The notes under the pieces are model-generated. The model was given only the letters and a program-made list of their open reading frames with translations. It did not search any database and was not told where the DNA came from. Shown piece after piece: positions 30,349-31,183 of a DNA stretch of 64,000 bases; position 1 is the first letter of the stretch; each line of letters opens with the position of its first letter. The position numbers and the translations under genes are program-made. Source of the stretch: Escherichia coli (GTDB lineage Bacteria; Pseudomonadota; Gammaproteobacteria; Enterobacterales; Enterobacteriaceae); the NCBI RefSeq assembly GCF_013122565.1, contig NZ_CP053258.1; one strand, written 5' to 3'.

Positions 30349-30457
30349 GACCATAACCTCAATGATTTATTTTTATACAAACTATGTTACGTGCTGTAAC
30401 AGGAGCGCGAAGTGTAGGGTCTGAGGTACATCTTAGAAATCAGACCAGTGGCGAGAG

Positions 30458-30474
30458 TATAGGTCGGACCAGCT
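30458..30474. promoter_or_regulatory. Putative FadR operator upstream of fadL
   Basis: Minus-strand AGCTGGTCCGACCTATA resembles the FadR box consensus (ANCTGGTCNGACNTNTT). Confidence 0.5.
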
Positions 30475-30719
30475 GGAATGTTGCAAGTATGTTTCTATCT
30501 TTTTTCAAATATGATCTAAGAAACGCGATCCAGCTGGCAAAATTTGGAGGTTGCGCACTCGCGGATTTGGGCGAATTTTGTTTTAGATCATTTTTAAGTG
30601 TGATTTCGGTCACTTATCCGATTTTGCAGAATTAACAACTGGAGCAGCACTTTCCGGAAGCGTAAAATATCCACAACGTTTATCTGGCACCTTGGGTGCA
30701 CATACAGAGGAAATCAACG

Positions 30720-31004
30720 ATGAGTAAATGTAGTGCTGATGAAACCCCGGTTTGCTGCTGTATGGATGTTGGCACCATTATGGACAACTCCGACTGCACC
30801 GCGTCTTACAGCCGCGTGTTTGCAAACCGCGCAGAAGCAGAACAAACGCTGGCGGCGCTGACTGAGAAAGCCCGTAGCGTAGAATCCGAACCGTGCAAAA
30901 TCACCCCGACTTTCACTGAAGAGTCTGACGGTGTGCGCCTGGATATCGATTTCACTTTTGCCTGCGAAGCTGAAATGCTGATCTTCCAGCTGGGTCTGCG
31001 TTAA
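30720..31004 (+). CDS. yfcZ: UPF0381 family protein YfcZ
   Basis: ORF 30696..31004; ATG at 30720 gives the 94-aa [26 protein letters not shown]... Confidence 0.88.
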
Positions 31005-31141
31005 TTCCTCTCGGGTACGTACGCCCCTGTCAGTTGCTGGCAGGGGCGTTTTCTTTTCTCTTCTTCTTTTCTCTCTGTGTCATAGCTCCCACTTTCCCTT
31101 TTCTCCGCTTGGCTAAATGTAAAAAAATGGTTAAGACTATG

Positions 31142-31158
31142 ATCAGGTCAGACCACTT
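31142..31158. promoter_or_regulatory. Putative FadR operator upstream of fadI
   Basis: ATCAGGTCAGACCACTT resembles the reverse complement of the FadR box, 26 bp upstream of the fadI start. Confidence 0.5.
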
Positions 31159-31183
31159 TATTTATTTTTTACAGGGGAGTGTT

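Follow-up and report, generated by a model that had tools for sequence, protein, structure and literature searches.

FadR operators at the fadL and fadIJ promoters flanking yfcZ in Escherichia coli

Based on the results below, we are highly confident that the region 30349-31183 of the window (the whole 64-kb stretch of Escherichia coli DNA analyzed here) contains two distinct FadR-controlled promoters of the fad regulon, both described before, namely the fadL promoter with two operators and the fadIJ promoter with one, and that yfcZ is an independent gene between them. A previous sequence-only reading had presented the region as one divergent control region of fadL and yfcZ-fadIJ. The two boxes it named are confirmed and its interpretation is largely correct. 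Instead of one region, however, two control regions are found, with yfcZ followed by a terminator and fadIJ equipped with an operator and apparently a promoter of its own.

Genes and gene order

The 835-bp span is composed of the fadL-yfcZ spacer (371 bp), yfcZ and the yfcZ-fadI spacer (179 bp). Gene identities had been proposed correctly, as verified by NCBIfam matches and the K-12 annotation: fadL (29008..30348, minus strand) matches the FadL equivalog with 830 bits, yfcZ (30720..31004, plus strand; DUF406, YfcZ/YiiS family, function unknown) matches TIGR00743 with 157 bits, and fadI (31184..32494) and fadJ (32494..34638), both on the plus strand, match the FadI and FadJ equivalogs; fadL, fadI and fadJ also appear in the list of open reading frames. 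An older annotated start of fadL corresponds to the in-frame ATG at 30354. The stop codon of fadI overlaps the start codon of fadJ, and the fadIJ operon extends from 31184 to 34638. The gene order is that of K-12 (fadJ-fadI-yfcZ / fadL) in reverse. Within the YfcZ family, the sole solved relative is YiiS (entry 2k3i).

Among 5,426 complete E. coli genomes, 5,425 match the span, with identities of 95-99.2%. It differs from K-12 by 12 substitutions and a single 1-nt indel in 835 bp, every one of them outside the boxes described below; no difference from K-12 is seen in the three FadR boxes, the CRP site or the PdhR box. For comparison beyond the species, a YfcZ scan using one genome per species yielded 80 Enterobacteriaceae loci, in which the synteny fadL-yfcZ-fadI was found wherever the flanks were available. 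The alignment of the whole span comprised 78 species. No known RNA element was detected in an Rfam scan of 28600..31600 (E ≤ 1). Its two sub-threshold hits, Spot 42 over the yfcZ terminator (20 bits, gathering score 80) and aceE-II (15.5, gathering score 100), were rejected as chance matches.

FadR-type sites in the window

FadR is a repressor of the GntR family, the dimer of which binds DNA via a winged-helix domain and is released when long-chain acyl-CoA binds to the C-terminal domain. The whole window was searched with the review consensus (AACTGGTCNGACCWGTT / aaCTGGTCnGACC(T/A)Gtt; PMC9329746), allowing up to three mismatches. Only two loci were found, 30458..30474 (minus strand) and 31142..31158, with 0.61 expected by chance; the second was matched on both strands because it is palindromic. 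Both are the positions at which FadR-like boxes had been noticed in the sequence-only reading.

Further, a symmetric position weight matrix (PWM) was built from nine K-12 sites (fadB, fadE, fadD with two sites, fadH, fadM, fabA, fabB, and iclR), i.e., from eight other FadR-regulated promoters of K-12, excluding fadL and fadI. The fabB and fadD boxes located for the matrix agree with published probe sequences. In a leave-one-out analysis, the training sites scored 14-19 bits, except the weak fadD site 2 (2.4 bits). The top match of the 64-kb window is the fadI box with 18.3 bits, inside the leave-one-out range; among 400 dinucleotide-shuffled versions of the window, only 6 reached this score at any position. 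The known fabB site follows as second match, and the fadL box at 30458..30474 as third with 11.4 bits. Thus, the top three matches are all located in promoters of known FadR-regulated genes, and the matrix scan, which had been suggested as a check, recovers both proposed boxes. Chance matches of at least the 11.4-bit quality amount to approximately 1.7 per 64 kb and to approximately 0.03 in the 371-bp fadL-yfcZ spacer. Taken by itself, the PWM score would be decisive for the fadI box and not for the fadL box.

The fabB FadR site (GGCTGATCGGACTTGTT, 51212..51228) is found 67-83 nt upstream of the fabB ATG (51295) and adjoins the FabR palindrome. Together with the fadL and fadI boxes it brings the number of FadR boxes in the window to four. 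Colinearity with K-12 would place the region upstream of fabB holding this site at approximately 49982 (49980..51300 compared). Its displacement to 51212 points to about 1.2 kb more DNA than in K-12 somewhere between fadL and fabB.

The fadL promoter

For fadL, binding data are available from Feng & Cronan (2012): FadR has the same affinity (approx. 50 nM) for the two fadL sites, and oleoyl-CoA releases it from both (PMC3460868). The EMSA probes of this study (PMC3460868, Table 2) map to 30450..30484 for site 1 and to 30423..30457 for site 2, each with 0 mismatches. Operator 1 (AGCTGGTCCGACCTATA, 30458..30474, minus strand) covers approximately −25 to −9, has three mismatches to the consensus, scores 11.4 bits, and is 96% conserved. 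The box noticed at this position is therefore the published fadL FadR site 1, as shown by the probe mapping. Operator 2 (CACTGGTCTGATTTCTA, 30434..30450, minus strand; approx. −1 to +16) was missed in the sequence-only reading; the comparison with known operator positions, which had been suggested there as a check, holds for site 1 and, with regard to the review, for fadIJ. Operator 2 resembles a FadR box weakly, as it matches in the left half-site only and has five mismatches to the consensus; its columns are 96% conserved. Like the accepted fadD site 2 (2.4-8.3 bits), it is a weak motif match. Sequence alone would establish neither operator 1 at 11.4 bits nor operator 2, which cannot be called in this way because it reaches 7.1 bits only. 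Nevertheless, operator 1, non-significant by its score, is confirmed by its position, its conservation and its identity to the published EMSA probe. Footprints of the fadL FadR operators of E. coli K-12 have reportedly been obtained by DiRusso et al.

The fadL transcription start was placed 95 bp upstream of the start codon, a functional CRP site is centered at −157, and a predicted CRP site at +57 is non-functional (PMC3460868). After probe mapping, all three distances agree, from which we derive a start at about 30449. The −10 hexamer TATACT (30456..30461, minus strand; 77/78 species), which would fit this start, overlaps the promoter-proximal end of operator 1. Thus, both boxes overlap the −10/+1 region, operator 1 covering TATACT and operator 2 the start. 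The 5′ untranslated leader (30349..30449, minus strand) is 90% conserved across the 78 species. An ArcA site was described 5 bp from FadR site 1 (PMC3460868). The direct repeat of ArcA type TGTTGcaagtaTGTTT (30479..30495), which adjoins operator 1 and is 92% conserved, is probably this site, with the exact bases assigned by us. In a fadR mutant, fadL is up approximately 2-fold (PMC3460868).

Both operators, the −10 hexamer, the CRP site and the leader have the same sequence as in the fadL promoter of K-12. The geometry is also unchanged (approx. −25 to −9 and −1 to +16, with 7 bp between the boxes), and no functional difference is seen. The fadD promoter is similar, as it likewise has two sites and is only modestly repressed. 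However, a distance of 68 bp separates the fadD sites, one of which is more than 10-fold weaker (PMC3460868), whereas the fadL sites are adjacent and of equal affinity despite their low PWM scores.

The fadIJ promoter

The fadIJ operator (ATCAGGTCAGACCACTT, 31142..31158) has two to three mismatches to the consensus, scores 18.3 bits, and ends 25 nt upstream of the fadI ATG. As top match of the 64 kb and nearly invariant in 78 species, the second box of the sequence-only reading is well founded. It is the sole strong FadR-type site of the yfcZ-fadI spacer. The 17-mer is identical in K-12 (2460496..2460512), and the T-run between box and ATG has one T fewer here than in K-12. Considering the PWM score and the conservation, 31142..31158 would correspond to the published fadIJ operator, which is reportedly this 17-mer.

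A simple sigma-70 scan missed the fadL, yfcZ and fadIJ promoters alike; consequently, promoters were placed using conserved hexamers. The candidate fadIJ promoter (31109..31137, plus strand) is a conserved block composed of a −35 hexamer TTGGCT, 17 bp, and a −10 hexamer TAAGAC, giving a nominal start at approximately 31144. The FadR box begins 5 nt after TAAGAC and would overlap the −10/+1 region with this start; hence, the operator is probably located over the start site, just upstream of the ribosome-binding site. An ArcA-like sequence, TGTAA..TGGTTAA, is present inside the spacer of the candidate promoter and is only putatively assigned to ArcA. Upstream of fadI, CRP-like half-sites (TGTGTcatagcTCCCA, 31076..31097, plus strand) form an 88% conserved block. 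According to the review, the fadIJ promoter contains a CRP site, the sequence of which is not stated (PMC9329746); 31076..31097 is a candidate for it.

These assignments agree with the fadIJ (yfcYX) promoter of K-12 (Campbell, Morgan-Kiss & Cronan, 2003, summarized in PMC9329746), which has the same gene pair, spacer and 17-mer. There, FadR represses fadIJ directly, and the site it uses overlaps the start, in agreement with the nominal start at approximately 31144; long-chain fatty acids induce fadIJ, and this induction depends on FadR (PMC9329746). In comparative genomics, fadIJ and fadL form the conserved core of the FadR regulon. The promoter also resembles that of fadBA in having a single near-consensus palindrome, with 18.3 bits compared to 14.7-18.1 bits for fadB. 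The operon had been called the anaerobic beta-oxidation operon; its identity as fadIJ is correct, but the label “anaerobic” is disputed (PMC9329746). A search of literature full text for the fadI box sequence, written continuously or spaced in triplets, gave no relevant match. No fadIJ probe is among those given in PMC4259882 and PMC4537474, and no binding assay on the fadIJ box was found in the literature search.

Other GntR-type regulators

LldR and PdhR are GntR regulators of the FadR subfamily with a GGT-N3-ACC core in their consensus, and the boxes might be shared with them or even be mainly used by them. We regard this as unlikely, even though published data lend it some weight. An LldR gSELEX peak is located in the yfcZ/fadL spacer, and the matches to the LldR consensus reported in that paper are exactly the two fadL FadR boxes (11/14 and 9/14), with the 17-mer of operator 2 given identically. 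This correspondence suggests cross-recognition among regulators of the FadR subfamily. The LldR gSELEX paper does not mention FadR anywhere despite naming both boxes. A PdhR gSELEX peak was found between fadI and yfcZ, and fadI mRNA is down in a pdhR mutant. Compared with the PdhR consensus AATTGGTnnnACCAATT, the fadI FadR box matches at 10/14 positions, the box proposed by the authors at 7/14. The latter (cAgcGGTaaaACCtgac, 31189..31205) lies inside the first codons of fadI, with the FadR box 47 bp upstream. As the FadR box is the better PdhR match, the PdhR signal might come from the FadR operator.

On the other hand, there is direct evidence that FadR binds to the fadL boxes and that acyl-CoA releases it (PMC3460868), the boxes match the FadR matrix, and both promoters belong to the conserved core of the FadR regulon. 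The effects reported for LldR and PdhR are modest (1.6- to 4-fold), stem from in vitro selection, and would come in addition to FadR control rather than in its place.

Transcription of yfcZ and the question of FadR control

A likely sigma-70 promoter of yfcZ is present at 30640..30668 (plus strand), composed of a −35-like TGGAGC, a variable spacer of 17 bp and a −10 hexamer TAAAAT, with a nominal start at approximately 30675. In the 78 species, TGGAG and GCGTAAAAT are conserved and the intervening spacer is variable. Downstream of the gene, an intrinsic terminator (31021..31059, plus strand) consists of a 13-bp stem (31021..31049) followed by a U-rich tract; its fold has −25 kcal/mol and z = −5.4. 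A hairpin with a T-run is present 3′ of yfcZ in 75/79 species, with differing stem sequences. This terminator implies that yfcZ is monocistronic and that fadIJ must start from its own promoter. With a terminator and, downstream of it, conserved promoter-like elements and a FadR box between the genes, the arrangement is not that of a yfcZ-fadIJ operon, and the review likewise gives the operon as fadIJ only (PMC9329746).

FadR could also co-regulate yfcZ, either through the divergent fadL operators or on one transcript with fadIJ, as the sequence-only reading had considered. All 80 related loci recovered carry the gene between fadL and fadIJ, where its spacing hardly varies, and some expression data couple it to fadL: mRNA of fadL and yfcZ is down together upon nitrogen depletion (3.5- and 3.1-fold), and both genes respond to deletion of lldR. 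In addition, the two promoters have an EMSA-validated CRP site between them. However, no FadR-like box was found near the yfcZ promoter-like elements, or as a further box in the spacer, in any species scanned, the next-best score in the spacer being approximately 0 bits. The fadL operators have their center upstream of the nominal yfcZ start by approximately 208 bp, a distance too large for occlusion. The strong, conserved terminator parts yfcZ from fadIJ. Further, published yfcZ data point elsewhere: in growth-transition arrays of E. coli O157, yfcZ is up and grouped with yfiD, ackA and hyp, genes induced by oxygen limitation, the opposite of the ArcA-repressed fad genes (PMC9329746), and no report of FadR control was found in the literature covered that mentions yfcZ. 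Co-regulation by FadR is unsupported for these reasons, and we consider it very improbable. A control region shared by fadL and yfcZ is thus not seen for FadR. For CRP it is possible, as its site is at a distance of 68.5 bp from the nominal start of yfcZ and of 157.5 bp from the transcription start of fadL.

Conservation of the operators

In the alignment of 78 species, per-column conservation is 96% for each of the fadL operators 1 and 2 and 98.5% for the fadI box. The two spacers as a whole are less conserved (84% and 74%), so that all three boxes stand out from their surroundings, as expected for FadR operators. Within fadL site 1, the core CTGGTCnGACCTATA is 99-100% conserved, and within site 2 this is 96-100% for CACTGGTCTGATTT. 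In 62/78 species the exact fadI 17-mer is present, its distance to the downstream fadI ATG being 40-50 nt in every case, and the distances between box and gene are fixed in the 78 species. That the two boxes noticed initially are functionless chance resemblances to the FadR consensus has a negligible probability, even if a box of 11.4 bits is expected about 1.7 times per 64 kb and 89/400 shuffles give three or more, since the top three PWM matches fall into promoters of the known FadR-regulated genes fadI, fabB and fadL, the boxes are near-perfectly conserved at fixed positions in approximately 78 species, and they match exactly probes with published binding data, the published EMSA already refuting chance for fadL.

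Architecture of the fadL-yfcZ spacer

The functional CRP probe of the fadL study (PMC3460868, Table 2) maps to 30585..30629 with 0 mismatches, and EMSA binding was reported for it (PMC3460868). The site (30596..30617, core TGTGAtttcggTCACT, center 30606.5) is 93% conserved and lies at −157.5 from the fadL start, a position called atypical and too far upstream for fadL by its discoverers (PMC3460868). Its distance to the nominal yfcZ start is 68.5 bp in 76 loci and 69.5 bp in three of the 79 loci with both motifs. The site might act on yfcZ as a CRP site of class-I type, or on both promoters.

A core of approximately 235 bp (30434..30668) keeps its length across Enterobacteriaceae genera with no base gained or lost: the distance between FadR box and yfcZ start is 208 in 74/77 loci, and the CRP distances are likewise fixed. 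Length variation of the spacer falls in the two leaders. Within this fixed-length core, 30496..30579 and 30618..30639 are only approximately 70-74% conserved. A length that is fixed despite sequence drift suggests a fixed nucleoprotein architecture.

In the yfcZ leader, a sigma-54-type motif TGGCAC-N5-GTGC (TGGCACcttggGTGC, 30685..30699, plus strand) begins 35 nt upstream of the yfcZ ATG and occurs in 66/81 loci with variable N5. As an RNA hairpin the sequence was rejected, because the stem is not kept in variants; as an NtrC dyad, its spacing is presumably 2 nt too short compared with the NtrC consensus. Sigma-54 is the better reading, as the spacing of −24 GG and −12 GC is kept and the stem is not. 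Close to the motif, at approximately 30708, is the position of an RpoN/NtrC gSELEX peak reported for the yfcZ/fadL spacer. A transcript started from the motif would lack the yfcZ ribosome-binding site, in keeping with the proposal in the literature that RpoN binding is repressive. An FNR-like dyad, TTGTT-N4-ATCAT (30578..30591; 78/81 loci), adjoins the CRP site. In addition, a 13-nt inverted repeat (AAATATGATCTAA / TTAGATCATTTTT, 30507..30519 and 30583..30595) is 12/13 complementary with its arms 63 nt apart; each arm contains GATC, and the right arm is highly, the left moderately conserved.

Tentatively, and with clear reservation, we propose that the CRP site activates the divergent yfcZ and that the fixed architecture links fadL and yfcZ through CRP and the sigma-54-like and FNR-like motifs, not through FadR.

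Discussion

FadR sites of fabB and fabA are located upstream of the promoter at approximately −40 and activate. The fadL and fadIJ boxes contain the same 17-bp motif, but overlap the −10/+1 region, in the case of fadIJ probably, and repress. A FadR dimer at each box would occlude the −10/+1 region and block RNA polymerase, in line with the published mode of action, in which RNA polymerase is blocked by FadR dimers bound to the boxes until long-chain acyl-CoA releases the dimers (PMC9329746, PMC3460868). Imported fatty acids, converted to long-chain acyl-CoA, would then release FadR and induce the transporter together with the second beta-oxidation complex. Sites for CRP and ArcA, which activate and repress fad promoters, respectively (PMC9329746, PMC3460868), would flank the operators and provide activation and anaerobic repression. 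Between the fadL and fadIJ promoters, yfcZ would be an independent monocistronic gene with its own promoter-like elements and terminator.

FadR control of fadL and fadIJ is textbook regulation already known from K-12. As the essentials are published for K-12 and the functional sites are identical here, nothing new is added in this respect, and the significance beyond annotation is small. In this strain, fatty-acid uptake (fadL) and the second beta-oxidation complex (fadIJ) remain under canonical FadR control. Two corrections are useful: fadL has two operators, not one, and yfcZ forms its own transcription unit, which is not visibly controlled by FadR. The invariant fadL-yfcZ spacing and the position of the CRP site with respect to yfcZ provide a minor lead, open to testing, on this functionally uncharacterized gene. 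If it is true, YfcZ, a DUF406 protein always encoded between fadL and fadIJ, would be tied to the carbon or oxygen control of fatty-acid use.
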